Source: Escherichia phage JM10
Sequence record: PP400777
Strand: one strand, 5' to 3'
Length of the DNA: 64,000 bases
The notes under the pieces are model-generated. The model was not told the origin of the DNA and did not search any database. It saw nothing but the letters and a program-made list of their open reading frames with translations. Positions within the stretch are counted from its first letter, which is position 1, and each line of letters opens with the position of its first letter. Both the position numbers and the translations under genes were made by a program. Positions 1 to 39,086 of the stretch are shown piece after piece.

Positions 1-1810
1 ATTCTTTACGAAGTTCTGAATCATCACCCATCAACATTTCAAAGAGTTCTTTCCAATTTTCAGGAAGTTTAACTACGTCGTACACAGGGTTCTGAATCAT
101 TTCACGATATTCTGACTTTTCAAGGGAGCCCAATCCCTTGATGTATCGAATACTATGCTTAGGCAGTGTATCTTTAACTTCTTCATACTCAGCTACAGTA
201 TAAAACCATTTTTGAGTTTTGCCAATTTGTGCAATAATTACAGGCGTTTTAACAAAGCGAATACGTCCTTGTTCGAACAATTCAGGCCAATTACTAAAGA
301 AAGCAAGCAAAGCCGGATAAATACTTCCAAGACCGTCATGATCGGCATCGGTCATAATTGCAATATTACGATAGTTCGTATTCTCTGCCTTTTCACCAAG
401 AATAAGACCTGTGATAGCACAGATATCAAAGAGCTCTTTGTTCTTCATCATATCAGCATATGACATACCCCAGCTATTCATCACCTTACCACGTAACGGG
501 AATCCGCCGTGTAGTTCACGGTCACGAACATCAATGAGATAACCAATTGCAGAATCACCTTCTGTTAAGAACAATGTCGTATCTGCATCTTTACCACATT
601 GGTTAGCTTTAATATGCTTATGAACCTTAGCTTTAGTTGCCTTTTTAGCTGCTTTAGTTTCTGCAGCCTTTTCTGCCGCCAATTTACGAGCTAATGCTGC
701 TTCAATTATAGGCATTAAAACTGCTTCAGAATTCAAAATATTTTTTGCCAATTTTTTTGTATCTAATTTAATATGCGTCCGAATTTCGCCATAAGGACTT
801 GTTAAACGCTCTTTTGTTTGGGAATCAAAACGAAGGTTCTTCATTCCACGAACGAACATTAAGAGAGTGAGACATTCCTTGATGCGCGCTTTAGTCACGT
901 CGATTTTATATTTGCGTTTAATAGCCGGAATTAATTCTTCGCAAATGTCGTCCATCACACATTCAATGTGATGACCACCGTTTTTGGTATGGATGTTATT
1001 CACATAAGTTAAATGACGGAAGCCATCTGGTGACCGTCCAATGGCAATAGAGCATCCGTCTTGTTCTTGAATGATGGTCTCTTCATCAAATTGTTTAGCA
1101 AACTTCTTAAAGTTACCTTGAATCTTTTTGCCATTAAATTTAAATTCAATACCAGGATAAACAACCGCCAATGTTTGGAGACGGTCTATAGTAATATCTT
1201 GGTATATTTTTTCAAATTGATTCATTTCAAAATGTGAGAAATCAGGAATAAACTCGACCTTAGTACCGTTGTTTTTAGACGGCTTAGATTTCCAAGAAAT
1301 ATTATCAGCGTTATTAGAACAATTAACGGTCAATTCATTTTTACCATCTGAAGTAGTGCCAACAAAAGAGACAGAAAAAATATTTGTTAATGAAGAACCG
1401 ACACCGTTTTGTCCACCCGTAACACGTTCTTTGTCGTCACCAAAGTTGCCACCGGCTTTTGTACGTGTCCACGCCGCAACTGGTCCTGGAATTTCTTCTC
1501 CTTCAGGAGTAATAACTGTTTCTTGAGGAATACCTCGACCATTATCTTCAACAGTCACTTTATTAGAATTTAAATCAATACTAACGGAAATTTTATTAGC
1601 ATATTTGAAATTGGTTCGAATAGCTTCGTCTACTGAGTTGTCAATAATTTCATCAATTAATTTGAGAACACCTGCAACATATTTAACCTTTTTAAATTCA
1701 CCGAATAGGAAACGTTCTTGTTCTTCATTGGCAACACTTCCAATATACATGCCAGGACGCTTCAAACAATGCTCTTTATCAGATAGCATTTCAATTTTAT
1801 TATCAATCAT
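1..1810 (-). CDS. 39: DNA topoisomerase II large subunit (GyrB-like), partial; continuous through the region that is a separate gene 60 in T4
   Basis: Hand translation from ATG at 1810: MIDNKIEMLSDKEHCLKRPGMYIG...DNSVDEAI...EDNGRGIP (GHKL ATPase), later EGDSA and IMTDADHDGLGS (Toprim), open to position 1. Absent from ORF track because it has no stop inside the window. Confidence 0.85.
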   Translation of the reverse strand, partial: MIDNKIEMLSDKEHCLKRPGMYIGSVANEEQERFLFGEFKKVKYVAGVLKLIDEIIDNSVDEAIRTNFKYANKISVSIDLNSNKVTVEDNGRGIPQETVITPEGEEIPGPVAAWTRTKAGGNFGDDKERVTGGQNGVGSSLTNIFSVSFVGTTSDGKNELTVNCSNNADNISWKSKPSKNNGTKVEFIPDFSHFEMNQFEKIYQDITIDRLQTLAVVYPGIEFKFNGKKIQGNFKKFAKQFDEETIIQEQDGCSIAIGRSPDGFRHLTYVNNIHTKNGGHHIECVMDDICEELIPAIKRKYKIDVTKARIKECLTLLMFVRGMKNLRFDSQTKERLTSPYGEIRTHIKLDTKKLAKNILNSEAVLMPIIEAALARKLAAEKAAETKAAKKATKAKVHKHIKANQCGKDADTTLFLTEGDSAIGYLIDVRDRELHGGFPLRGKVMNSWGMSYADMMKNKELFDICAITGLILGEKAENTNYRNIAIMTDADHDGLGSIYPALLAFFSNWPELFEQGRIRFVKTPVIIAQIGKTQKWFYTVAEYEEVKDTLPKHSIRYIKGLGSLEKSEYREMIQNPVYDVVKLPENWKELFEMLMGDDSELRKE

Positions 1811-2486
1811 TAGATTTTCTCTCAAATTGCATGACTATATTTTTGTATGAACCTTCCGGAAATCCACGTTTAATGCTTTCTTTAGCAAATTTCCCAACCT
1901 TTGGTTTATCCAATTCTAACCATAATTTATATAAAGCAGATTCATATTCCCATACAGGACTTTTACGATTTTTAAGCCCACACTTTATAAGTGCTTCCTT
2001 TGTATGTTTCTTATTATAAAATGGATTGTTTTTGCCACTCATTGCTTTAGAATGTTCCGGGCGCTTAATTCCATACATCGGATTAAGATCGCCTTTCTTG
2101 ATAACGGATTGTAGTTCAATAGTTTCTTCAGAGTGATTGTGTCCATAAAATGGATTTAACTCTTTTGAAACATCCATACCAAAGCACCCATCGACTGTGG
2201 CATAAGACATGTTGAAAAATTTTTCAGATTTAACCACATTATGCAATTTCTGGTAATACAACTCACAAAACGTCGCTTCTTCCCGTGTATCAAATTCGCC
2301 AATAATACATGAATCAAATAAATGAGGATTATCTTTTATCTCTTTATCATAAATTTGTTTATATTTTTTCGACTTTACCGTACCATGATAGTGATTGTTT
2401 GTATGTTTATCAAGATAAGTAGACCCTATATAAAACGGTGGCAACTTATCGCCTGTGTATATTGTTAAGTATGTTATGTATTTCAT
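1803..2486 (-). CDS. GIY-YIG homing endonuclease with NUMOD3 repeats (Seg-like), free-standing
   Basis: N-terminus YITYLTIYTGDKLPPFYIGST (GIY...YIG); three NUMOD3-like repeats NPFYGHNHSEETIE / NPMYGIKRPEHSKAMSG / NNPFYNKKHTKEA; stop overlaps gene 39 start. Confidence 0.7.
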   Translation of the reverse strand: MKYITYLTIYTGDKLPPFYIGSTYLDKHTNNHYHGTVKSKKYKQIYDKEIKDNPHLFDSCIIGEFDTREEATFCELYYQKLHNVVKSEKFFNMSYATVDGCFGMDVSKELNPFYGHNHSEETIELQSVIKKGDLNPMYGIKRPEHSKAMSGKNNPFYNKKHTKEALIKCGLKNRKSPVWEYESALYKLWLELDKPKVGKFAKESIKRGFPEGSYKNIVMQFERKSND

Positions 2487-2492
2487 AAAGGT

Positions 2493-2519
2493 ATTCTATC
2501 ATCCGAAATCTAAAGCAAA
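2493..2519 (-). promoter_or_regulatory. MotA-dependent middle promoter (MotA box TTTGCTTTA, 12 nt, -10 TAGAAT)
   Basis: Minus strand reads TTTGCTTTAGATTTCGGATGATAGAAT, 7 nt upstream of the ATG at 2486. Confidence 0.55.
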
Positions 2520-2535
2520 AAGGGCCGAAGCCCTT
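2514..2535 (-). terminator. Rho-independent terminator (6-bp GC stem, UUCG loop, U-tract)
   Basis: Minus strand AAGGGC-UUCG-GCCCUU followed by UUUUUG; directly after stop of 2534..2959. Confidence 0.6.
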
Positions 2536-2959
2536 ATTTAAATTTAATTTTCTGAAGTGCATCAATTGCAGCCAAACGTCCTTGTTCACTTTTAACTGTA
2601 ATGACCACATCGCCTGATACGATCACCGAACCATCAACAAATTCTATAGAGCCTTTTTTGAAATCGACAGCTGTATCTGGTTCCTGAACTTCTTCAAAGA
2701 ATTTAAATTCTGCACCATAAAGCAGAATATCACCTTGCATACTATGAATAGTTCGGCCATAATCGCCTACGGCTTCTACAGCAATAACCGAAACACCGTA
2801 ACCAATCATCTCTTCCACAATAAAATCTTTGGACAATAAAGTAGTATGCAGATTAGTATTAAGACGTTTACCAGTCGTATTAAGAATTCTCAAGAAATTA
2901 TCTTCCTGTCCTTTGATAATACGATATTTCTTACCAACTTCAAAACCTTTAAAAGCCAT
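2534..2959 (-). CDS. hypothetical early protein, 141 aa (position and size resemble T4 goF; not verified)
   Basis: ORF track; ATG preceded by SD; followed by terminator. Confidence 0.6.
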   Translation of the reverse strand: MAFKGFEVGKKYRIIKGQEDNFLRILNTTGKRLNTNLHTTLLSKDFIVEEMIGYGVSVIAVEAVGDYGRTIHSMQGDILLYGAEFKFFEEVQEPDTAVDFKKGSIEFVDGSVIVSGDVVITVKSEQGRLAAIDALQKIKFK

Positions 2960-2962
2960 AAT

Positions 2963-3141
2963 TAACCCTTCTTAAGTAAGTCGTAAAAACCACCATTCAC
3001 ATGTTTAGGAGCAGAAACCCGACGAGTAGACAGATGATGACATTCAGGGCAAACATCGTTTTCTCGTTCAGAAATTCTTTTAATTTTTTCATATTCATGA
3101 CCACAATCTTCAGATTGACATTTATAGTCGTATAACGGCAT
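2963..3141 (-). CDS. small zinc-ribbon protein, 58 aa (FmdB-like CxxC...CxxC)
   Basis: Hand translation [59 protein letters not shown]; start overlaps upstream stop (TAATG); below ORF-track size cutoff. Confidence 0.55.
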
Positions 3142-3572
3142 TATTGTTCCTTAAAATGTGCTTTCAACATTTGATACAAAGACCATGCCTGGTCGTTATT
3201 TTCGATAGTAATTGTCATCACCGGAAATTCAGACAATTCGTCAAGTTCACCAGAATCTTGCTCTTCGGACGCTTGATACGGATTTCCCACTTCGTCAAAG
3301 AACTCTGCTTCATTCGTGGAGAGCCAGATAAAGTTTTCATCAAGAATATCACCGCCTGTTGCGTATCCAACCGTGCCAGTAGATGTCACAATTTTAGTAG
3401 GACGACCAAGATGGTCAACATCTAATACTTTAAATGGTTCCATGCCAAGACGTCGTGCATAAATCCCATTATCAGTGTGGCCTTTAATAAACTCTTCTTG
3501 GGCACGTTTATCTTTAAATTGGTACCATGAGTTAACGCGGAATTTATTAGCCATTAGTAAGTTTCCTTCCAA
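3141..3572 (-). CDS. hypothetical protein, 143 aa
   Basis: ORF track; tightly packed minus-strand operon. Confidence 0.55.
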
Positions 3573-3778
3573 TAAGTTGTACCGTTTTCAGTGATTTCAC
3601 GGAAGATACCATAGATAGGCATTTCATCACCGAGTTTTTCGTAAACGTAAACCACTTCAGTGTAGCATAAAAATTCAGTCCAGTTTTTCTGTACAACAAC
3701 TAAATCAGGATTAAACAGAACATCTTCAAACTCATCGATGTTTGAATCAGTAGTTACGTTTTTAATGATTTGACGTTT
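3554..3778 (-). CDS. hypothetical protein (start adjusted to MKRQIIKN; track ORF 3554..3826 extends into the SD/promoter)
   Basis: N-terminal ...SKQEENIM is a translated SD (GAGGAG). Confidence 0.45.
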
Positions 3779-3838
3779 CATAATATTCTCCTCTTGTTTT
3801 GATATGTCTATAGTATCATAGACCATAGTTGTTGTACA

Positions 3839-4363
3839 TCATTTTAGCAAAATAAAATCAACTTGTTCCGCCAATGAACGTCTGAACATTAATTGACAAC
3901 TTCCGAGGATGAAATCAGGTGCTTCATAGACCGCGATGTAGTATCCTTTAGCTTTCAAGAGTTCAACATCCACCTGGTCATCAAACCATGCATAAACCGC
4001 GTCAACACTTTCAAATCCAAAATAGAACCCTTTAGCCCAATCTTCACTCAATTCAAATGTGTGCTCAATTCTATAGTATCTTAAGATATTTTGTTCAAGG
4101 AGTTTGTCTTCATTTACTGTAGGACGATTAGGGACATTATAGTTGTCGCCGTGATGGTAGAAGTTACCTGAGAGTATTCCATGCTTATCAAGGAACTCCC
4201 ATGTTTCTTCAGAGTTGTCGGTGCCCGACCAACCGTATGGCGAACGAGGTTCTTTATTCCAAGAGGTTTCCCAAATTCTGACGGCTTTACCATCTTCGAT
4301 AGCAATTCCTGGTAATGATTCACGTTGAGTACAAAAACTACGTTCTACGCGGTAAACTAACAT
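3839..4363 (-). CDS. hypothetical protein, 174 aa
   Basis: ORF track; own early promoter and SD. Confidence 0.6.
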   Translation of the reverse strand: MLVYRVERSFCTQRESLPGIAIEDGKAVRIWETSWNKEPRSPYGWSGTDNSEETWEFLDKHGILSGNFYHHGDNYNVPNRPTVNEDKLLEQNILRYYRIEHTFELSEDWAKGFYFGFESVDAVYAWFDDQVDVELLKAKGYYIAVYEAPDFILGSCQLMFRRSLAEQVDFILLK

Positions 4364-4389
4364 ATTATTCTCCTCTGGTTGATATAGTT

Positions 4390-4418
4390 ATATTACCAAA
4401 ACCAGAGGAGAAGTAAAC
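4390..4418 (-). promoter_or_regulatory. sigma70-type early promoter (-35 GTTTAC, 17 nt, -10 TAATAT) with spacer/SD inverted repeat
   Basis: Minus strand GTTTACTTCTCCTCTGGTTTTGGTAATAT; spacer CTCCTCTGGTT complementary to AACCAGAGGAG at the SD. Confidence 0.6.
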
Positions 4419-4422
4419 AACT

Positions 4423-4842
4423 TTATGCGAAAGCAGCTGGGCTATATTTTTTAATTTGGAATTCAGGAACTACCATGAACTGTCCAGCGAAAACGATGTT
4501 ATAAAGCTTAACACCATCTTCTACCCAACGGTCGCTAATAAATCCAGCGATTTGCTTAGTTTTCCACGGTGTTCCATCAGTTGCCGCAGCAATAGTGAAT
4601 TCATGGTCTTTTTCAACAGAAACTGATCTGCATAGTCCCCATTTGAACGCTTTTTCTTCTGGTTCAATGAACTGGCTTGAGACGTAGCCAATATTACCAT
4701 TAGCATCACGAACTTTAACTTGGTTATGACCAAAAACCGGATCACTCACAGAAAGAACTTCAACCAACTTACCGGCAACTTTAGAGCGAGAAGCAACAGA
4801 TACATATACGTAATCACCTGTAGAGAGATTTACAATATTCAT
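4423..4842 (-). CDS. hypothetical early protein, paralog 1 of a tandem triplet (motB-region family?)
   Basis: C-terminal block ISDRWVEDGVKLYNIVFAGQFMVVPE shared with the next two genes. Confidence 0.6.
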   Translation of the reverse strand: MNIVNLSTGDYVYVSVASRSKVAGKLVEVLSVSDPVFGHNQVKVRDANGNIGYVSSQFIEPEEKAFKWGLCRSVSVEKDHEFTIAAATDGTPWKTKQIAGFISDRWVEDGVKLYNIVFAGQFMVVPEFQIKKYSPAAFA

Positions 4843-5337: not shown

Positions 5338-5367
5338 ATTATACTCCATCCATCCTTGGATGTAAAA
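5338..5367 (-). promoter_or_regulatory. early promoter (-35 TTTTAC, -10 TATAAT)
   Basis: Minus strand TTTTACATCCAAGGATGGATGGAGTATAAT. Confidence 0.55.
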
Positions 5368-5369
5368 CA

Positions 5370-5864
5370 TTAATTAAGAATATTAACTACTGCACTACGT
5401 GGAACAACACTAAAATCACCAGCATGAACAACGTTAATAAGTTCAACACCATCTTCAATCCACTGATCAGTTACCCATCCACTCACTGGACCTGCGAACG
5501 GACGTCGAATTGAAACAGCTTTACACAACAAATCAGTAGGCTCAATAGGCTTAATCAGAGTACCGTACATACAAGCGATATCCATATCAATACAGATGTC
5601 TTTAACGGGTTCTACTTCTTCAATAAACAGTTCAAAGTCGGTGCTTGGAAGGGCGGTAGTAGAAATTGTACCGTATGAATTTTTAATTTCTAAGAATAAC
5701 CAAGGGCCTTCCGTTTGTTTGATGAAGTTAACAATAGTGAAACTATTACCTTGAGTGGCACCTAAAATTTCACAAAACTTTTCATAAGCTCGCACTGAAG
5801 CACCGTACCAGTTGATTTGTTTTTCGTCTTTCAGGATGTAAGTAGCCGTAGTATTGATATTCAT
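5370..5864 (-). CDS. hypothetical early protein, paralog 3 (start adjusted to MNINTTATY)
   Basis: WVTDQWIEDGVELINVVHAGDFSVVP. Confidence 0.6.
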   Translation of the reverse strand: MNINTTATYILKDEKQINWYGASVRAYEKFCEILGATQGNSFTIVNFIKQTEGPWLFLEIKNSYGTISTTALPSTDFELFIEEVEPVKDICIDMDIACMYGTLIKPIEPTDLLCKAVSIRRPFAGPVSGWVTDQWIEDGVELINVVHAGDFSVVPRSAVVNILN

Positions 5865-11866: not shown

Positions 11867-11933
11867 ATTGTTCTCCTCTTGAGTAAGTAAAAATATCTTA
11901 ACACAGTTTTTAGTTGTTGTAAACTGTAGAAAC

Positions 11934-11962
11934 AAAAAAAAAAAGGAATCCTTCGGGATTCC
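11934..11962 (-). terminator. Rho-independent terminator downstream of soc
   Basis: Minus strand GGAAUCC-CGAA-GGAUUCC followed by 11 U. Confidence 0.8.
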
Positions 11963-11971
11963 TTAAATTAT

Positions 11972-27440: not shown

Positions 27441-30152
27441 TCAAAAATCGAACATATCGAACAGAGATGCTTTCTTCTCGTAATCGAGTTTCGCTGCTGA
27501 TGTGAATCCTTCAAGTGGTTTAATAAATGTCTTCTCAAGGAGAACAGTGTAGTCCATCCAATGAAGTACGTCGTCTTTAATTAAATCTGTGATTTCAGTG
27601 CCAGAAGGCCATGCGATACATTTATCACCGAATGGGTTTCCTTCACGTAAAGGCAGAACATATACTTTTTCACCTTCTACAACTTGCGGTGCATCGATAT
27701 TACCTTTGATAGCCCGGTTATACGTCAGAATTCCACGAATATGGAACGGGCATTTGGGACCAGGGAATCCACCGACATCATATTTAGCAATGTTATTCGC
27801 AGAAGATACCGACGCGATGCTAATATAATTCAATTGACGGAATTCTTTTTCAAACTCTTTAAAATATTCTTGTAATGATTCTTCACCTTCTTGAAGCATA
27901 CGACGAATACATTCTTTAAGAGCTTTCTGTACTGCTTTAGGGGTCGAAGATTTCTGAGTCTCTAGACCCATGATTTTGAGTTTAGGCTCAGCGTAACGAG
28001 TGCCTTCCATATCCCACACGTTTAATGCATAACGTTTCTTACCAGTCCAGAATCCACCAATACCTTTAGAACCGAGCGGAGGACCAGCGATAGCTTCTCG
28101 GTCCATGAACATTAAGTGTTGTTTATTGTTCATGTATTCACACATTTCACGGAAACCTCTATCAATAGCAGGTTCCATACGTTCACGAGCGAACTTATCT
28201 AAGAAGTCTACCCAATGGTTGGTATCACGGAATTTAGATTCACCAACCTTATCGATAATTTTATCAGCAGATACGTAAATAGAGTCTGTATCACCATAAA
28301 GAACGAAAGCTTCACCTTCTGTACCACAAACTTCATTCAGATATTCATTAACTTTACGTTCAATCCACTGTAAAGCCATTTGCCCGAATGTTGTGATTGC
28401 AGTAGCATTACGCAAATCATAATAACGGAACCAAACGTTTCCAAGTGCACCATAAAGCGAGTTGATGAGCAATTTACGGTTAATCTGTGCAGTCATACCT
28501 GCAACTTCAGTACGTTGAGCTCTAAACAACATTTCATTAAGAGATTTAGCAGACAACTTTTTAATCTTTTCTTTAATCTCAACGCTGAAGTCGAAACGAT
28601 AATCAACATCTAACGGTTCGTCAACAGAAAGATTAGGATTATGCAATGCCTCTTTAATTATTTCACCATTACGTTGAGCTGCAAGCATGTAACCTTTATG
28701 TTCTTTACGTTGATTAAAGACCTTAGTGATTTCAGTTGGAACTACACCATCACGGTCTTTATAATACATCATGCCGTTAGGAGAACAACTGTACACATCT
28801 GAAGGACGTTCAGCGATTGCGTTAATATAATCATGCAGTGGAGCTACTTTAAACGTTCCTGCTATTGTTTCCGGGCTAATATTCACTTGGCGAATAATAC
28901 TTGGATACAGAGATGTAAGGTCGAAACTCATTACATATTTGTATCGATTTGGAATAGGTTCCTTAACAAAAGCGCCAGGATAAGGTTGAACTGGGTGAGA
29001 ACGACCTTGTGGAATCACCTTGTTCTGTTCTTTAAGGCTATTAAAAATAATAGCATCCCATGTTTTAATTGGGCTAAACACAGATTGAATCTGTATCTTA
29101 GCATAATAACCCATGTCCAAACTCAAGTTGATGAACTGACGCTTAGCATCAATTTGCAATACACGATACACGTCGATAATGTTATAAGAAATATATCGTT
29201 GGTGATTGCTTTCACGAAGCTTAGAAATAGGGCCGTCATATTTCAGTTTACCAACGTTCAATTCAAATTCTGAAATGTAATCCAGAGAATACGACGGTTG
29301 ATTGGTAAAAGAGAATTTTTTGTAAAGGTCAATGTAATCAAGAACAGAGATACCGAACAATGTAATGATTTCACGAGAACCATACATGTTTTCGATAACT
29401 TTAACACGAGTTTTACGATGTGGTGATAAACGTTTCGCAGTAGATTCGCCAAAAATATTCTTGATTCGGTTATACACATATGGAATATCAAATGACTCAA
29501 CGTTCCATCCAGTCAAAATGACAGGAGTTTTCTGTTGCCAGAAGTTGAGATATTCCATCAACAATTCTTTTTCGTTATCGAACGGCATATAAATGATTTT
29601 ATCAATAATTTCGGATGGAACTTCATCACCGCCTTGTTCTTGAAGCTTAGCCGCAATTTCGATAGACCATTCTTCTACATTACCATACGGAGAATTCAAT
29701 AGATCAAATACGTAGAACCTGTCGTCAATTGAGTCATAATGGGTGATAGCATCAATCGGATGTTTTGCTTGTGACGGCTCAGGGAACCCATCCGGAGATG
29801 TTACTTCGATGTCGAAGTTAGCCACACGAATTTTTGTATGGTCGTATTTGATTTCATAGTTATAAGTGTCAGACAAATACGCCAATTTGAAATCGTCCAT
29901 GCCAAGTGCTTCAAGTCCGATATCTTCCATGCGTTTAATCCATTGGGAGGCATCACGCATATTAGCGAACAACTTACGAGTACACGGCTTACCGTAGATA
30001 TCGAAATATTTCGTAGCCTGACTTTCTGGACAATGAGCAAACAGTGATGGTTTATATTCTACTTCACGAGTACGTTCACGGCCATTAGAATCGATGTAAC
30101 GTTCAAAAATTGAATCACCAATCTGTTCAACCGTTAAGTAAAATTCTTTCAT
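27441..30152 (-). CDS. 43: DNA polymerase gp43 (family B)
   Basis: 903 aa; exonuclease and polymerase motifs (YGDTDS); synteny. Confidence 0.95.
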   Translation of the reverse strand: MKEFYLTVEQIGDSIFERYIDSNGRERTREVEYKPSLFAHCPESQATKYFDIYGKPCTRKLFANMRDASQWIKRMEDIGLEALGMDDFKLAYLSDTYNYEIKYDHTKIRVANFDIEVTSPDGFPEPSQAKHPIDAITHYDSIDDRFYVFDLLNSPYGNVEEWSIEIAAKLQEQGGDEVPSEIIDKIIYMPFDNEKELLMEYLNFWQQKTPVILTGWNVESFDIPYVYNRIKNIFGESTAKRLSPHRKTRVKVIENMYGSREIITLFGISVLDYIDLYKKFSFTNQPSYSLDYISEFELNVGKLKYDGPISKLRESNHQRYISYNIIDVYRVLQIDAKRQFINLSLDMGYYAKIQIQSVFSPIKTWDAIIFNSLKEQNKVIPQGRSHPVQPYPGAFVKEPIPNRYKYVMSFDLTSLYPSIIRQVNISPETIAGTFKVAPLHDYINAIAERPSDVYSCSPNGMMYYKDRDGVVPTEITKVFNQRKEHKGYMLAAQRNGEIIKEALHNPNLSVDEPLDVDYRFDFSVEIKEKIKKLSAKSLNEMLFRAQRTEVAGMTAQINRKLLINSLYGALGNVWFRYYDLRNATAITTFGQMALQWIERKVNEYLNEVCGTEGEAFVLYGDTDSIYVSADKIIDKVGESKFRDTNHWVDFLDKFARERMEPAIDRGFREMCEYMNNKQHLMFMDREAIAGPPLGSKGIGGFWTGKKRYALNVWDMEGTRYAEPKLKIMGLETQKSSTPKAVQKALKECIRRMLQEGEESLQEYFKEFEKEFRQLNYISIASVSSANNIAKYDVGGFPGPKCPFHIRGILTYNRAIKGNIDAPQVVEGEKVYVLPLREGNPFGDKCIAWPSGTEITDLIKDDVLHWMDYTVLLEKTFIKPLEGFTSAAKLDYEKKASLFDMFDF

Positions 30153-30199: not shown

Positions 30200-30230
30200 A
30201 TTATACTCCAAATGGGACCGAAGTCCCATT
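30200..30230 (-). promoter_or_regulatory. stem-loop (UUCG loop) plus TATAAT-like element in the regA-43 intergenic region; candidate gene 43 regulatory structure
   Basis: Minus strand AAUGGGAC-UUCG-GUCCCAUU then UGGAGUAUAAU; about 50 nt upstream of gene 43 ATG. Confidence 0.35.
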
Positions 30231-35548: not shown

Positions 35549-35774
35549 TACACGCTTCAGCCATTTTAAGAATAGAGCCGGGAGTATCGTTGTCCATTAT
35601 ATTAAAGCTAAATTCAATAGCCCAGTCGGTGCAGACATGAACTGCTTTAACTTCATTGCCTTCAACACGTAATGGTTCAATCCAATACTTGATAGTGTTC
35701 TCGAATCCATCATCTTTAACGTCTATTTCAACTTCAAGCCCAAGACCAGCATTATTAAATTCATCTAAAGTCAT
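35520..35774 (-). CDS. hypothetical protein, 84 aa (46.2 position)
   Basis: ORF track. Confidence 0.45.
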   Translation of the reverse strand: MTLDEFNNAGLGLEVEIDVKDDGFENTIKYWIEPLRVEGNEVKAVHVCTDWAIEFSFNIMDNDTPGSILKMAEACIEDAYNDED

Positions 35775-36790
35775 TGTGTCGCCTCAATATAAAGTTCGTT
35801 GGAATATTTGACCAGCGCTTCTCTGTCTTCGTCTGAGATATCTGGAATCGCGTCAATATATTCTTTAATGATATCTTGAAGTGATTTAATCTCGATTTCC
35901 TGGTCGTCATCAGATTCAACACTGTTATCAACTTTAGAAACCATACGAAGAGAGTGAACTACTTTTTCAAGTTCAGATTCAAACTTAGTCAACTCTGAAT
36001 CAATTTCTGATACTATAACACGTACGGCTAGATTAGTATAATCAGAATAATTGATTTTGCCTTTAAATGGATAAGTGATTCGTCGATGCCATGTTGTTTC
36101 ATTAGGAATAAATTCCATACGTTCAACATCAGTGTCAAATACCCAGAATCCGCGAGGGTCGTTCTCATCACCTGCAGTAAGGGTCCATGGTGTCCCAATA
36201 TATTTGACGTTAGCCGCTTCAGAGATTGTGTGGAAGTGGCCGGACCAGACTTGTTTATAGGTCTTTAAGAAATCAGGTTCAAGCCCGTGAGACTTCATCC
36301 CTTTATAGAAATAAAAGCCATTCAGTTCCCAATGACCAACACAATACGCGGCAGAAGAAGTCTTGATGTGCTCTAAGATTTCACCTGTATTTTCTTCGCA
36401 CATCCATGGAACGATATCAATCAGACATCCGTCAAAATCTACAGTAGTCGGATGCTCGTAAATAGTAAAGTTTTCAAATTGAGTTAACAATTCAGAAACA
36501 GTGTTAGGTGTTATTGTATTCTTAAACGCCATGTCATGGTTTCCTATCGTGACATGAACGTGAATGCCTGCTTTAGAAATCATATCAACGATTTCACGAT
36601 TGAATTCCATTGTACGATGTGTTATTGCTTTACGGACGTCAAACCAATCACCGTACTGAATCCAAGTTTTAATCCCGTGTTTCTTAGAGTATTCAATTGC
36701 TTGACGAATACCGTCACGTTGAATATCTTGAACCCATGGGTCGTCTTGTTTGACTCCGATATGGAAGTCGCCTAAGTGCAAAATTTTCAT
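35771..36790 (-). CDS. 47: recombination nuclease subunit gp47 (Mre11/SbcD-like phosphoesterase)
   Basis: 339 aa; MKILHLGDFHIG; GNHD. Confidence 0.9.
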   Translation of the reverse strand: MKILHLGDFHIGVKQDDPWVQDIQRDGIRQAIEYSKKHGIKTWIQYGDWFDVRKAITHRTMEFNREIVDMISKAGIHVHVTIGNHDMAFKNTITPNTVSELLTQFENFTIYEHPTTVDFDGCLIDIVPWMCEENTGEILEHIKTSSAAYCVGHWELNGFYFYKGMKSHGLEPDFLKTYKQVWSGHFHTISEAANVKYIGTPWTLTAGDENDPRGFWVFDTDVERMEFIPNETTWHRRITYPFKGKINYSDYTNLAVRVIVSEIDSELTKFESELEKVVHSLRMVSKVDNSVESDDDQEIEIKSLQDIIKEYIDAIPDISDEDREALVKYSNELYIEATQ

Positions 36791-36813
36791 ATTATTTCCT
36801 CATTAGTTAATTC

Positions 36814-36839
36814 ATTCTATCATCCGTTTATAAAGCAAA
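36814..36839 (-). promoter_or_regulatory. MotA-dependent middle promoter upstream of gene 47 (TTTGCTTTA, 11 nt, TAGAAT)
   Basis: Minus strand TTTGCTTTATAAACGGATGATAGAAT. Confidence 0.6.
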
Positions 36840-36860
36840 AAAGGAACTCCGAAGAGTTCC
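36837..36860 (-). terminator. Rho-independent terminator (UUCG loop, U6)
   Basis: Minus strand GGAACUC-UUCG-GAGUUCC-UUUUUU. Confidence 0.65.
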
Positions 36861-37033
36861 TATCCACATAGTACACCGTACAAAGGCTCATTTGAACTTT
36901 TAAATCGAATGGGCTTGTATGTAATAGTTCCTTCGGCTTTAGCTTTATCGTAAGACTCTTTAAAACGTCTCATTCTTTCTGCTTTGCCTTTACGGATTTT
37001 ATCGAAATTTTCAGAGGTCAGGTCGTTCGTCAT
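36860..37033 (-). CDS. small basic protein, 57 aa
   Basis: Hand translation MTNDLTSENFDKIRKGKAERMRRFKESYDKAKAEGTITYKPIRFKSSNEPLYGVLCG; ends at the terminator; below track cutoff. Confidence 0.4.
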   Translation of the reverse strand: MTNDLTSENFDKIRKGKAERMRRFKESYDKAKAEGTITYKPIRFKSSNEPLYGVLCG

Positions 37034-37072
37034 GCATAATCATCTCTCAGAAAATACCTAAACCGATTTCTC

Positions 37073-37294
37073 TCATCGTTTCCACCATTTCTTAACTTGA
37101 AATGAATCAACCCACACGAGTTGTTTTGGGTCAGCCTTTACAATAGGCGGACAAATTTCTGTAATAGAACCGTCGTGATATTCCTTTTCAGAGATTTTAA
37201 CACAAAGAGGACCTCCCAATTTAAGGGTGAACCCTGCGTTCAGCTTCAGACGTTTAAACTTTGTTTGAACTAGCGCCATTAATGATGTCCTCAA
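37073..37294 (-). CDS. hypothetical protein, 73 aa
   Basis: ORF track; overlaps next ORF, start uncertain. Confidence 0.35.
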   Translation of the reverse strand: MRTSLMALVQTKFKRLKLNAGFTLKLGGPLCVKISEKEYHDGSITEICPPIVKADPKQLVWVDSFQVKKWWKR

Positions 37295-37577
37295 TAGCCT
37301 GACGTGTAGTAACCCACTGGATTTTAATTAACTTGTCATTATATGGTTGTCGTAGAATATCCCGAGATTTCTTAATAGCATATTCGTAAGCTTCGAAGTT
37401 GTTTTTAATTGCTGCTTCTTGAGCATGAGCATAAAGACGGTTTAGTTCAAAACGATTCTTTTTAAGAATCTTTTCGGATTTTTTACGTGCTTCAGCTTCA
37501 TTTTTCTTTTGGATTTCTTGTAGCATTTTAGCTACTGCATCTTCTGCTTCTTTATTTTCAATAATCTCGGTAGTCAT
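37254..37577 (-). CDS. hypothetical helical, Lys/Glu-rich protein, 107 aa
   Basis: ORF track. Confidence 0.45.
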   Translation of the reverse strand: MTTEIIENKEAEDAVAKMLQEIQKKNEAEARKKSEKILKKNRFELNRLYAHAQEAAIKNNFEAYEYAIKKSRDILRQPYNDKLIKIQWVTTRQAIEDIINGASSNKV

Positions 37578-37578
37578 A

Positions 37579-37794
37579 TTATCTCATTAAATTAAAATAA
37601 AAACGTCCATCCTCTTCAATACAGAACTCATACTCAACCGGAGTCCCATTTATCGAAAATGACACGTCATGTGGGTTCAAAGGGTCGATGTCAAAATTAA
37701 TTTTAAATTCACGACCCAACAATTTTACCAAATAAGGGATTGCTTCGTCAAAAGGTTCTTCTAAGTAGTTAGAGATGTCAATTGTCATCCTCAT
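37579..37794 (-). CDS. hypothetical protein (start adjusted downstream of gene 55 stop)
   Basis: Track ORF 37579..37872 overlaps gene 55 by about 95 nt. Confidence 0.4.
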
Positions 37795-38353
37795 ATAAAA
37801 AATCCAAACTAGGCGAATCGCTAACAACTTCCTTCTTTTCAGCCCCAGGAGCTTTATAAGCGGATTCTTCATAACGCGTCATTTTATCGTAGATGTCTTG
37901 AATAAACGTTTCATCTACCAACGCTACCATATCATCGTCATGACTGTCGTAGACATTATGAACGAAGTAACTATATTTCTTTGCAACTTCCTTACGTTCT
38001 TTTTTGATACGTTGGACAAAAGCATTAAAACAAGCTCGAGTTATGTATGCATGTGGGTTATTGTACTTAGTTTCGTCGAAATTATGAAGTCCCTTAATAG
38101 AGGCTTCAATACCATCTGCAATCATCTCCTGCTTCCAAGACTGGGTATATCCTGAAAAGTTGAAACGTTTGGACAGGCCTTCGGCGATAAGCATAATTGC
38201 TAAACCGATGGTATCATTCTGACGAATAATTTTGTTTGGGTCTTTATTATTTAAGAGCTCCTTTTTCCACTCGATTATAGCGGCGAGAAGCTCTTTATTA
38301 TTCACATAGTTATTTTTATGTTTTTGTTCAGTCATAAGTACCTCTTGGCTCAA
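37778..38353 (-). CDS. 55: late-transcription sigma factor gp55
   Basis: 191 aa; synteny; sequence pattern recalled from T4 gp55. Confidence 0.85.
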
Positions 38354-38490
38354 TTCATAGGTCTATTATATCATAATATTTAGAGACCTATCTTAAAGCA
38401 CGAGATACTATCAAAGATACGTAACTTTCATAAAGTTGTCGACTTAAAATTCACTAAACTTTTCTTCGGTTATAGCGATTCAAGATAGTT

Positions 38491-38718
38491 TCATTCTATT
38501 TCCTTTGCTGCAAATAAGGCAGCATCCAACGAATCAAATTGGTCAACAAAATCAATATTTAACGCATCGTCAACCGTAGCATATAACCACCATTGTTTGA
38601 ATTCATATTCAAGAATAAATCCAGGACCTTCAATCTGAGGAAGACCTAGGCTATTTGTACCAACTTCGTAACCAGCTAGACGCAGGTCATTAATCAAAGT
38701 TTCTGTTAATACGCTCAT
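38491..38718 (-). CDS. hypothetical protein, 75 aa (55.x region)
   Basis: ORF track. Confidence 0.45.
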   Translation of the reverse strand: MSVLTETLINDLRLAGYEVGTNSLGLPQIEGPGFILEYEFKQWWLYATVDDALNIDFVDQFDSLDAALFAAKEIE

Positions 38719-39086
38719 TTTGCCGCCTTAACAATTTTCAGGTCAACGAATTTTTTCTTACGCTGATTTTTCATACGACGGATAGTCTTTTCAGAGATTT
38801 CATGTTTCTGATAAGCTTTAGATTCAACACCAAATGCAGCAACGTCAAATTCAGAAAGAATATATTGTACTAGAATTTCGCGAATAGAATTACGTCCAAT
38901 TTTCTGGTCGTGTTTTTGCATGATTTCATAAAGACGGAATTCCCACGCGTCAAGAACTTGAGGAGTAACAATATTGCCGGATTCCAGAAGAGCAACAACT
39001 TTATCGAAAGCGAAAGAATTAACTACGTTTTTGATTTTAGTAGACATATTATTTTCCTCGGTTATTTTATTATCCAATGAGAGCAT
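38715..39086 (-). CDS. hypothetical protein, 123 aa
   Basis: ORF track. Confidence 0.5.
   Translation of the reverse strand: MLSLDNKITEENNMSTKIKNVVNSFAFDKVVALLESGNIVTPQVLDAWEFRLYEIMQKHDQKIGRNSIREILVQYILSEFDVAAFGVESKAYQKHEISEKTIRRMKNQRKKKFVDLKIVKAAK

Follow-up and report, generated by a model that had tools for sequence, protein, structure and literature searches.

The window analysed here is a stretch of 64,000 nucleotides of Escherichia phage JM10 (PP400777), and it contains two intergenic modules in which a UUCG hairpin runs into a middle-promoter-like sequence. Copy 1 stands in front of a homing endonuclease gene that precedes gene 39, and copy 2 stands in front of gene 47. Megablast of positions 1500-4500 and blastn of positions 36300-37400 against a phage collection assigned the window to Mosigvirus, in the RB69/HX01-like branch of the T4-type Straboviridae, with 97-99% identity to many isolates. 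Both modules are encoded on the minus strand, which carries the early and middle genes. In transcription order, the neighbourhood of copy 1 consists of motB-like genes, cef, a goF-like gene, an FmdB-like gene, a 141-aa ORF, the 227-aa endonuclease ORF and gene 39, while that of copy 2 consists of gp55, three small ORFs homologous to T4 a-gt.4, a-gt.3 and a-gt.2, and then gene 47. The genes motA and asiA are not part of the 64-kb window; in the close relative HX01, a MotA-like activator and an AsiA anti-sigma factor are annotated. A known structured RNA was rejected for the window, which gave no Rfam match at gathering thresholds. The features are as follows.

1-1810, minus strand: gene 39, DNA topoisomerase II large subunit, truncated by the window start
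about 670-1810, minus strand: foreign part of gene 39, from identity to PhAPEC2
1803-2486, minus strand: free-standing homing endonuclease gene; the 227-aa product has three NUMOD3 stretches and a GIY-YIG-like N-terminus
1913-1938, minus strand: internal middle-promoter-like motif TGCTTTA-N13-TAGAAT at the 3′ end of the endonuclease gene
2486-2487, minus strand: predicted middle-transcript start of copy 1, 6-7 nt past the -10 element, from mapped T4 starts
2535-2493, minus strand: copy 1, whole module
2493-2498, minus strand: copy 1 -10 element TAGAAT, with the preceding TGA as an extended -10 (TGn)
2493-2505, minus strand: copy 1 shared 13-mer CGGATGATAGAAT
2499-2510, minus strand: copy 1 spacer, 12 nt, gatttcggatga
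2511-2519, minus strand: copy 1 MotA box TTTGCTTTA, from the published consensus; orthologous to the T4 P39 box AGCTTTA
2520-2535, minus strand: copy 1 hairpin AAGGGC-ttcg-GCCCTT, terminator-like by sequence, scan and fold
2534-2959, minus strand: 141-aa ORF upstream of copy 1
35771-36790, minus strand: gene 47, SbcD-like recombination nuclease subunit, predicted to be driven by copy 2
36797-36801, minus strand: copy 2 Shine-Dalgarno sequence GAGGA
about 36807-36808, minus strand: copy 2 predicted start
36861-36814, minus strand: copy 2, whole module
36814-36819, minus strand: copy 2 -10 element TAGAAT
36814-36826, minus strand: copy 2 shared 13-mer
36820-36830, minus strand: copy 2 spacer, 11 nt, taaacggatga
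36831-36839, minus strand: copy 2 MotA box TTTGCTTTA, with the TGCTTTA core at 36837-36831
36842-36861, minus strand: copy 2 hairpin AGGAACTC-ttcg-GAGTTCCT (as RNA, AGGAACUC-UUCG-GAGUUCCU), terminator-like
36860-37033, minus strand: DUF5486 ORF, homologue of T4 a-gt.2

An earlier note on this DNA had reported one composite element at 2493-2535 and at 36814-36860, and a UUCG hairpin, a T-run and a promoter are indeed present at both sites when the minus strand is read. The first bases of the copy 1 hairpin overlap the TAA stop codon of the 141-aa ORF, and the T-rich 5′ part of the MotA box is at the same time the U-tract of the hairpin. The -10 element is followed by ACCTTT and then by the endonuclease ATG at 2486, which places the predicted start on, or 1 base ahead of, the endonuclease AUG. 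In copy 2, the hairpin overlaps the TAG stop codon of the DUF5486 ORF, further T ahead of TTTGCTTTA gives a run of six T altogether, and a 23-nt leader containing GAGGA precedes the gene 47 ATG at 36790. Because the hairpin starts within the stop codon of the upstream ORF, the module occupies the entire intergenic gap in both copies. The spacing of 11-12 nt given in the earlier note holds from the box TTTGCTTTA to TAGAAT (12 nt in copy 1 and 11 nt in copy 2), but from the box to GGATGATAGAAT the distance is really 5-6 nt.

Terminator-like hairpins and predicted T4-type middle promoters

Both copies show the hallmark of an intrinsic terminator, a GC-rich stem-loop directly before a U-tract. The copy 1 hairpin was scored as terminator-like by a consensus scan, and the hairpin matching it in the PhAPEC2 annotation is listed as a putative terminator. 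Its centroid fold has -9.3 kcal/mol, with only a slight stability margin over shuffled sequence (z -1.5). Copy 2 passed a hairpin scan that required a perfect stem of 5 bp or longer and, after it, 4 or more T in 6; in the 39-nt test segment folded for this copy (36832-36870), an outer helix surrounds the hairpin, and the fold has -13.9 kcal/mol (z -4.0). The U-tracts are short and broken by G and C (UUUUUGCUUU), and termination may therefore be weak. By extrapolation from T4, transcripts would be expected to terminate at both hairpins: a comparable hairpin in T4 mobE gives 30-50% termination (PMC2790892). A review of T4 transcription points out that the decay of delayed-early RNA, not termination, may be the controlling step (PMC2988021).

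Middle promoters of T4 have the consensus (a/t)(a/t)(a/t)TGCTTtA, 12 ± 1 bp, TAtaaT, need no -35 element and carry TGn in about half of the cases (PMC2988021). In both copies, TTTGCTTTA fits this consensus, in agreement with its earlier identification as the MotA box of T4 middle promoters. The -10 element TAGAAT matches at 5 of 6 positions, lies 12 bp (copy 1) or 11 bp (copy 2) from the box and is preceded by TGA. When the whole T4 genome (NC_000866) was scanned for the same composite, with overlap between hairpin and box allowed, the early-gene strand showed just three sites where a UUCG hairpin is fused to a MotA box.

5381-5398 of T4: before gene 39; AAAGGCC-ttcg-GGCCTTT, AGCTTTA, 12 nt, TATAAT
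38715-38734 of T4: after a-gt.2 and before mobB; ATAGGAGC-ttcg-GCTCCTAT, at, TGCTTTA, 12 nt, TAAAAT
36607-36626 of T4: after a-gt and before 47.1/47; TAAAGGGC-ttcg-GCCCTTTA, GCTTTA, 12 nt, TATAAT; the first base of the box is taken up by the hairpin

All three coincide with experimentally mapped middle promoters, namely P39 (start at 5349), PmobB (38682) and P47 (36576) (Hinton 2010, Table 1, PMC2988021), and the mapped starts lie 6-7 nt past the -10 elements. By position, copy 1 corresponds to T4 P39. In copy 2, the left flank, where the C-terminus of a-gt.2 (YGVLCG-stop) is followed by the hairpin, matches that of T4 PmobB, and TGCTTTATAAA is common to the two. Since Mosigvirus lacks mobB, a-gt and 47.1, copy 2 also stands in for T4 P47. 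The view of the modules as terminator-like hairpins running into T4-type middle promoters is thus supported by the sequence together with orthology to mapped T4 promoters, and from this positional orthology we would extrapolate MotA dependence and the start sites to both copies.

The arrangement is widespread. Among IMG/VR loci fetched via gp47 and gp39 alignments (31 and 48 loci, respectively, with 19 genomes paired), most sampled T4-like lineages, including CBH8-, Marfa-, EcS1- and JS98-like phages, have hairpin, T-run, MotA-like box and -10 element ahead of both gene 39 and gene 47 (or 47.1). Stem sequences vary freely while the arrangement persists across genera. Therefore, the architecture is old and positional.

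Copy number and likeness of the two modules

The strings identical in the two copies are TTTTTGCTTTA (11 nt) and CGGATGATAGAAT (13 nt), whereas the hairpin stems and all flanks are different and unrelated. The alignment of copies and flanks that had been proposed earlier thus brings out the 11-nt and 13-nt identities and no relationship in the stems or flanks. In the window, GGATGATAGAAT occurs exactly twice, and no enrichment is seen when up to 2 mismatches are allowed (9 found versus 9 expected). In the complete genome of HX01 (169,158 bp), TTTGCTTTA-N5-6-GGATGATAGAAT is found at these two loci and nowhere else. Likewise, a scan for a perfect-stem hairpin, within 12 nt a MotA-like box, and then a -10 element recovered a UUCG hairpin fused to TGCTTTA at only these two loci on the HX01 early-gene strand, so that a genome-wide search in this relative yielded no further copies. 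Scanning IMG/VR for TTTGCTTTA-N3-9-GGATGATAGAAT returned 6 stretches, and all five whose context was examined are these same two loci. A dispersed repeat family was accordingly rejected on the HX01 and IMG/VR counts, and the modules are a pair. The description of the module as duplicated did not hold up either: with unrelated stems and flanks and two modules per genome, these are not copies of one cassette.

The likeness that the two promoters do have is above chance, not extreme. Across 39 predicted middle promoters of HX01 (741 pairs), the gene-39/gene-47 pair ties for the top local alignment score (22, versus a mean of 9.8 and sd of 2.7), and its common string of 13 nt beside the -10 element is the longest of all pairs, the next being 12 and 10 nt. 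The concern that the similarity might be merely the generic promoter consensus between unrelated flanks was borne out for flanks and stems, but the 13-mer exceeds the consensus. In our reading, the likeness is mostly shared architecture and promoter consensus, with the 13-nt stretch on top; consensus and orthology alone do not fully explain the identity beside the -10 element. Each copy is about as similar to its positional counterparts in other genera as to the other copy, or more so.

Gene-47 promoters of Mosigvirus, Marfa-like and JS98-like phages all keep the sequence CGG(G)ATGATA(A/G)AAT; the eight other lineages compared lack it in their gene-39 promoters, where the spacers differ. The 13-nt stretch is ancestral for the gene-47 promoter and, among gene-39 promoters, confined to Mosigvirus. 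Therefore, the gene-39 copy may carry a short converted patch or may have converged. In a matrix of gene-39 versus gene-47 promoters from 9 genomes, similarity is 17.1 within genomes and 14.4 ± 5.7 between genomes, and general concerted evolution of the two promoters across genera was rejected on these values. The promoter part of Mosigvirus P39 scores 18 against the JS98-like P47, 17 against its own P47 and 6-11 against the remaining P47 sequences. Among 58 mapped middle promoters of T4, P39 and P47 are the third most similar of 1,653 pairs; they have CCTTTAGCTTTAT in common, including a non-consensus A in the box, and also share the non-consensus TTTAGCTTTAT. Unlinked T4 promoters also have long matches (15-16 nt for PtRNAE/P31 and 12 nt for P55.8(2)/P52).

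Two side observations belong here. Only Mosigvirus and T4 stand out for gene-39/gene-47 promoter likeness in the 9-genome comparison, and the shared CGGATGATAGAAT in the former and the shared non-consensus TTTAGCTTTAT in the latter hint at patch exchange. Separately, the spacer motif GGA(T/G) had been considered as a RegB (GGAG) site or a Shine-Dalgarno sequence; both readings were dropped as unsupported because the motif is GGAT in Mosigvirus, lies before the predicted start and is too distant from any AUG.

The endonuclease gene and its insertion boundaries

The endonuclease gene separates the gene-39 promoter from gene 39. The endonuclease stop codon overlaps the gene 39 start (ATGATTGA). 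The product matches PHROG homing-endonuclease families. Its N-terminus gives hits below threshold to Pfam GIY-YIG (E 0.08 and 0.026) and to SegE, and one homologue reaches GIY-YIG at E 7.6e-4; we therefore leave the catalytic class at GIY-YIG-like. This also casts doubt on the label "HNH endonuclease" that RefSeq gives to the HX01 homologue. The N-terminal part is weakly similar to T4 SegE and SegG, and the C-terminal part to MobD, SegA, SegC and SegF.

Because the endonuclease ATG is only 6 nt past the -10 element, a middle transcript starting at 2486-2487 would be leaderless. Read-through transcripts offer no Shine-Dalgarno sequence for the endonuclease either, and together these two features point to low expression. 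T4 mobB is arranged alike, with the mapped PmobB start 3 nt ahead of the mobB AUG. The internal TGCTTTA-N13-TAGAAT motif is situated about 100 nt ahead of the gene 39 ATG, and its box and -10 element are kept in two homologous endonuclease genes of ~70% nucleotide identity. It is a candidate replacement promoter for gene 39, and it has a parallel in the T4 nrdB middle promoter, which lies inside mobE (PMC2790892).

The earlier note had inferred a portable insulator-promoter cassette that possibly travelled together with the endonuclease gene. Only 9 of the 450 phage records that match cover this gene, and among the matches listed that lack it, the alignment spans the module and ends at 2485-2488, the endonuclease ATG. 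PhAPEC2, which has no endonuclease gene, carries an identical module directly upstream of gene 39 and reads ...AAATAAGGGCTTCGGCCCTTTTTGCTTTAGATTTCGGATGATAGAATACCTTcataacgaggagacaacATG(gene 39); its identity to the window holds through GAATACCTT. Across the endonuclease gene and the initial ~1,140 nt of gene 39, identity to PhAPEC2 is 62-80%, and beyond that point it is 98-100%. Correspondingly, the N-terminal 300 residues of gp39 are 71% identical to PhAPEC2 and 72% to T4. The jump in identity therefore places the foreign segment at approximately 670-2487; it is made up of the endonuclease gene and a co-converted piece of gene 39, a combination typical of homing. Since the foreign segment runs from the endonuclease ATG (2486) into gene 39, the module lies just outside its left edge. 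A promoter carried by the endonuclease would occur only together with the gene and within the transferred tract; the module occurs without the gene and lies outside the tract, and the supposed joint movement thus finds no place in this lineage.

Other phages use the same position. In the window, the GIY-YIG/NUMOD3 gene follows TAGAATACCTTT-ATG; in lineage L084, an unrelated Endonuclease_7/HNH-type gene follows TATAATACCTCC-ATG at the same nucleotide past the -10 element of the gene-39 promoter, and a relative of L084 without the insertion reads TATAATACCTCCATacacaagaggaaagatgATG. Homologues of the window endonuclease also precede gene 39 in two further lineages, where the upstream signals differ. 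One (L053) has a MotA-type promoter and no hairpin; the other (L050) has a hairpin, an early-type GTTTAC..TATAAT promoter and a Shine-Dalgarno sequence. As a side observation, the unrelated GIY-YIG/NUMOD3, Endo VII/HNH and T4 mobB genes would all have their AUG at the start of the middle transcript.

Origin of the modules and comparison with known systems

After weighing these data, we propose that the two modules are very probably resident junctions at which early gives way to middle transcription, ahead of genes 39 and 47, and that the endonuclease gene landed behind one of them. The landing behind a resident promoter follows because relatives without the gene keep the module and because the foreign tract is one-sided. 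The anatomy of the modules, their positional orthology, the insertion boundaries and the copy number are all shown by the data. At each junction, a GC-rich C(UUCG)G hairpin beginning within the stop codon of the upstream early ORF would, with its T-run, partly terminate, or at least punctuate, transcripts from upstream early promoters. The same T-run would lead into the MotA box, centred near -30, and MotA and AsiA would remodel the sigma-70 RNA polymerase for a restart 6-7 nt past TAGAAT. The endonuclease gene was inserted between the -10 element of the gene-39 promoter and the former gene 39 leader, and about 1.1 kb of foreign gene 39 sequence arrived with it. With the insertion behind the -10 element, the middle transcript would now begin at the endonuclease AUG; gene 39 would then be served by read-through, by its own ribosome-binding site and possibly by a promoter inside the endonuclease gene. 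Functionally, the window elements agree with the model for T4, where middle genes are reached both by early transcripts that read through and by MotA-dependent ones (PMC2988021). It is from T4 that we infer termination, MotA dependence, the start sites and leaderless translation.

The shared 13-mer is a P47-type patch in the Mosigvirus gene-39 promoter, which could have been acquired by short conversion or reached by convergence. The former would mean that a short patch of ~13-20 bp passed by gene conversion or small duplication from the gene-47 to the gene-39 promoter in a Mosigvirus ancestor, which would make the copies partly paralogous. This seems to us possible but rather doubtful. It would account for CGGATGATAGAAT as the longest string shared beside the -10 element in 741 pairs, for the presence of CGG(G)ATGATA(A/G)AAT in the gene-47 promoters of three genera and its absence from the gene-39 promoters of eight other lineages, for scores of the Mosigvirus P39 promoter part of 17-18 against Mosigvirus and JS98-like P47 versus 6-11 against others, and for the rank of T4 P39/P47 (third of 1,653 pairs, with TTTAGCTTTAT in common). 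However, matches of 12-16 nt also join other unlinked middle promoters (up to 15-16 nt in T4 and 12 nt in HX01), the within-genome excess is not general (17.1 versus 14.4 ± 5.7), TGn and a near-consensus -10 element are selected anyway, and the patch is too short for a phylogenetic test. Composite promoter-stem-loop elements of T4-like phages, known as PeSLs, with PmSL as the middle-promoter variant, have been proposed to drive modular shuffling (Arbiol et al. 2010, PMC2839356; Comeau et al. 2014, PMC4122927), and the modules might likewise be recombination joints that provide short homology for foreign cassettes such as endonuclease genes and a-gt. In favour of such joints, two unrelated nuclease genes (in the window and in L084) sit at the same nucleotide past the gene-39 promoter -10 element, and the mobB and a-gt block of T4 is flanked by two modules where Mosigvirus has one. 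We nevertheless consider them unlikely: a genome has about 50 PeSLs, which are well conserved relative to one another and concentrated in hyperplastic regions beside ORFans (PMC2839356, PMC4122927), whereas the window modules are two per genome with different stems and stand beside core genes, and homing, through a double-strand break in gene 39 and its repair, is enough to account for the insertion and the 1.1-kb tract with no part played by a module.

Two further alternatives concern the function of the hairpins and the mobility of the whole element. The UUCG hairpins might act as 3′-end stabilisers or processing barriers of the upstream early mRNAs, with their adjacency to promoters reflecting tight packing. 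The short, interrupted U-tracts, the modest stability of copy 1 and the possible control of T4 delayed-early transcripts by RNA decay instead of termination (PMC2988021) fit such a role, but hairpin and T-run are kept together across genera despite changes of the stem, PeSL stem-loops terminated efficiently in reporter assays (PMC2839356, PMC4122927), and the similar T4 hairpin in mobE terminates at 30-50% (PMC2790892); we regard this role as improbable. A duplicated, portable insulator-promoter cassette, carried to the gene 39 locus with the endonuclease gene, is scarcely credible. It is true that the endonuclease ORF begins 6 nt past the copy 1 -10 element, that homologous endonuclease genes elsewhere are likewise directly behind a promoter and that T4 mobB is directly behind the counterpart of copy 2. 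However, an identical module stands in relatives without the endonuclease, T4 has a module at the same place, the foreign tract starts at the endonuclease ATG and extends away from the module, the L050 and L053 homologues carry other upstream signals, and the two copies have unrelated stems and flanks. For this lineage, the relatives without the endonuclease gene refute the cassette.

We also entertain, as a rather improbable extension, that the gene-39 and gene-47 junctions, 34 kb apart, both exchange short patches in concerted evolution and serve as landing pads for endonuclease genes. If the landing pads are real, endonuclease mRNAs would be leaderless and weakly translated, and the host gene would still be served.

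If the modules are resident early/middle junctions, as we prefer, the practical gain is in annotation, since the modules show where a Mosigvirus has its predicted middle promoters for genes 39 and 47 and the terminators ahead of them, and the T4 transcription map would carry over to this genus. Moreover, the case cautions against assigning a regulatory element to a mobile gene only because it stands directly ahead of it. For specialists, the points of interest are that unrelated endonuclease genes use the same nucleotide behind the gene-39 promoter and that the endonuclease gene appears to hold an internal gene 39 promoter, much as mobE contains one for nrdB. Both points agree with the known ways in which selfish genes are accommodated within phage transcription units.

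In kind, the elements are already known, as T4 middle promoters and as stem-loop-promoter composites of the PeSL/PmSL type. They share with T4 P39, PmobB (Palpha-gt.1) and P47 the positions (after the ORF that comes before gene 39, after a-gt.2, and before 47/47.1), a C(UUCG)G hairpin touching the MotA box, the 12-bp spacer, the -10 element and a start 6-7 nt farther on. They differ in that T4 P39 and P47 have AGCTTTA and TATAAT, whereas both window copies have TGCTTTA and TAGAAT; T4 has the two modules PmobB and P47, whereas Mosigvirus, without a-gt, mobB and 47.1, uses a single module; and an endonuclease gene follows the gene-39 promoter in the window phage. Tuerk et al. reportedly described C(UUCG)G tetraloop hairpins in intercistronic regions of T4 in 1988. 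The window hairpins have the same unusually stable tetraloop and closing C-G pair and are likewise intergenic in a T4-type phage; that description dealt with the RNA motif only, and the fusion to a promoter lies beyond its scope.

Like PeSLs and PmSLs, both copies are composites that fill the whole intergenic gap: an intergenic stem-loop terminator or attenuator lies just upstream of, or within, a promoter, and the element extends from the stop codon of the upstream gene to the Shine-Dalgarno sequence and ATG of the next. A TGCTT Mot box with a -10 element is common to them and PmSLs. Elements of the PeSL type are found beside indels that separate close relatives; here, the left edge of the endonuclease insertion abuts copy 1 and the T4 mobB/a-gt block abuts the counterpart of copy 2, which may be comparable. 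Unlike PeSLs, they are present in two copies in 169 kb, with unrelated stems and beside the core genes 39 and 47, and the module need have had no part in the adjacent endonuclease indel because homing explains that insertion.

The closest parallel for the endonuclease gene is T4 mobE in front of nrdB (Wilson and Edgell 2009, PMC2790892). The catalytic family is another one, the window endonuclease being GIY-YIG-like with NUMOD3, and mobE has no promoter immediately upstream, whereas the window and T4 mobB ORFs start at the start site of a resident middle promoter, which in the window is a predicted one. As for mobE, the window endonuclease gene would rely on resident promoters, a middle promoter in its 3′ end would serve the downstream host gene, hairpins would restrict its expression, and flanking host-gene sequence was co-converted with it.

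Genes inserted behind the gene-39 promoter

Insertions recur at the junction of the gene-39 promoter with gene 39, and genes inserted before gene 39 are found in three loci of other T4-like lineages:

L084:756-1494 (IMG/VR UViG_2706795394): an Endonuclease_7/HNH-type gene, unrelated to that of JM10, at the same nucleotide position after the -10
L053:793-1508: a homologue of the JM10 endonuclease gene, with different upstream signals and without a hairpin
L050:760-1508: a homologue of the JM10 endonuclease gene, also with different upstream signals, here a hairpin together with a GTTTAC...TATAAT promoter of early type and an SD

In JM10, the gene 39 start codon overlaps the endonuclease stop codon within ATGATTGA (8 nt, window 1803-1810, minus strand), which suggests either translational coupling or an inserted gene packed tightly against gene 39. 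The 5′ part of gene 39 is itself a mosaic:

Window ~670-1810, minus strand: mosaic tract, defined by identity to PhAPEC2

Over its initial ~1,140 nt, gene 39 shares 62-80% identity with PhAPEC2, a Mosigvirus lacking the endonuclease gene, and then steps sharply to 98-100%. The gene product begins with MI(D/E)NKIE where an endonuclease gene adjoins and with MIKNEIK in alleles without one. We presume that this tract was co-converted together with the endonuclease gene.

The endonuclease homologue in HX01 (D299_gp190, L001:1804-2487) is labeled "HNH endonuclease" in RefSeq, and PHROG 10820 is labeled likewise. This label is probably wrong, because the protein (window 1803-2486; HX01 D299_gp190) gave no HNH match, whereas its N-terminus is GIY-YIG/SegE-like and it contains NUMOD3 repeats.

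A promoter-like motif within the endonuclease ORF

Window 1913-1938, minus strand: TGCTTTA-N13-TAGAAT, a middle-promoter-like motif within the endonuclease ORF

The gene 39 ATG lies ~100 nt downstream of this motif, whose box and -10 are kept in the homologous endonuclease genes of L050 and L053 at only ~70% nucleotide identity. The motif may be a promoter inside the ORF from which gene 39 expression is restored, and we liken it to T4 mobE/nrdB, where an internal promoter serves the downstream host gene. Alternatively, codon constraints (Ala-Leu, Leu-Glu-Leu) could account for the conservation of the box and the -10.

Hairpin-promoter composites in JM10 and T4

Two further composites were located in the window:

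Window 30200-30229, minus strand: third promoter-linked UUCG hairpin, upstream of gene 43
Window 11895-11964, minus strand: PeSL-like composite of early type, hairpin plus promoter sequence

The gene 43 element corresponds to T4 P43, whose start is mapped at 29933, and consists in order of ATGGGAC-ttcg-GTCCCAT, TTGGAG and TATAAT; its hairpin is placed within the promoter, between the -35 region and the -10, and not upstream of a MotA box. In the early-type composite the hairpin, AAGGAATCC-cgaa-GGATTCCTT, is strong and carries nine T; TTTACA-17-TAAGAT comes after it, with TG preceding the -10.

Among the mapped middle promoters of T4 (NC_000866), the unlinked PtRNAE (start 72593), P31 (131540) and P32 (148057) are near-duplicates, with PtRNAE and P31 having 15-16 nt in common (TATTTGTTATTATTAA; local alignment score 33). 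Therefore, distant look-alike middle promoters are not peculiar to genes 39 and 47. In T4, the PmobB and P47 hairpin-plus-middle-promoter modules flank mobB and a-gt (L004:3586-5731; T4 36585-38730), whereas Mosigvirus has one module only between the a-gt.2 homologue and gene 47. Insertion of a cassette at a hairpin-plus-middle-promoter module would be consistent with this layout.
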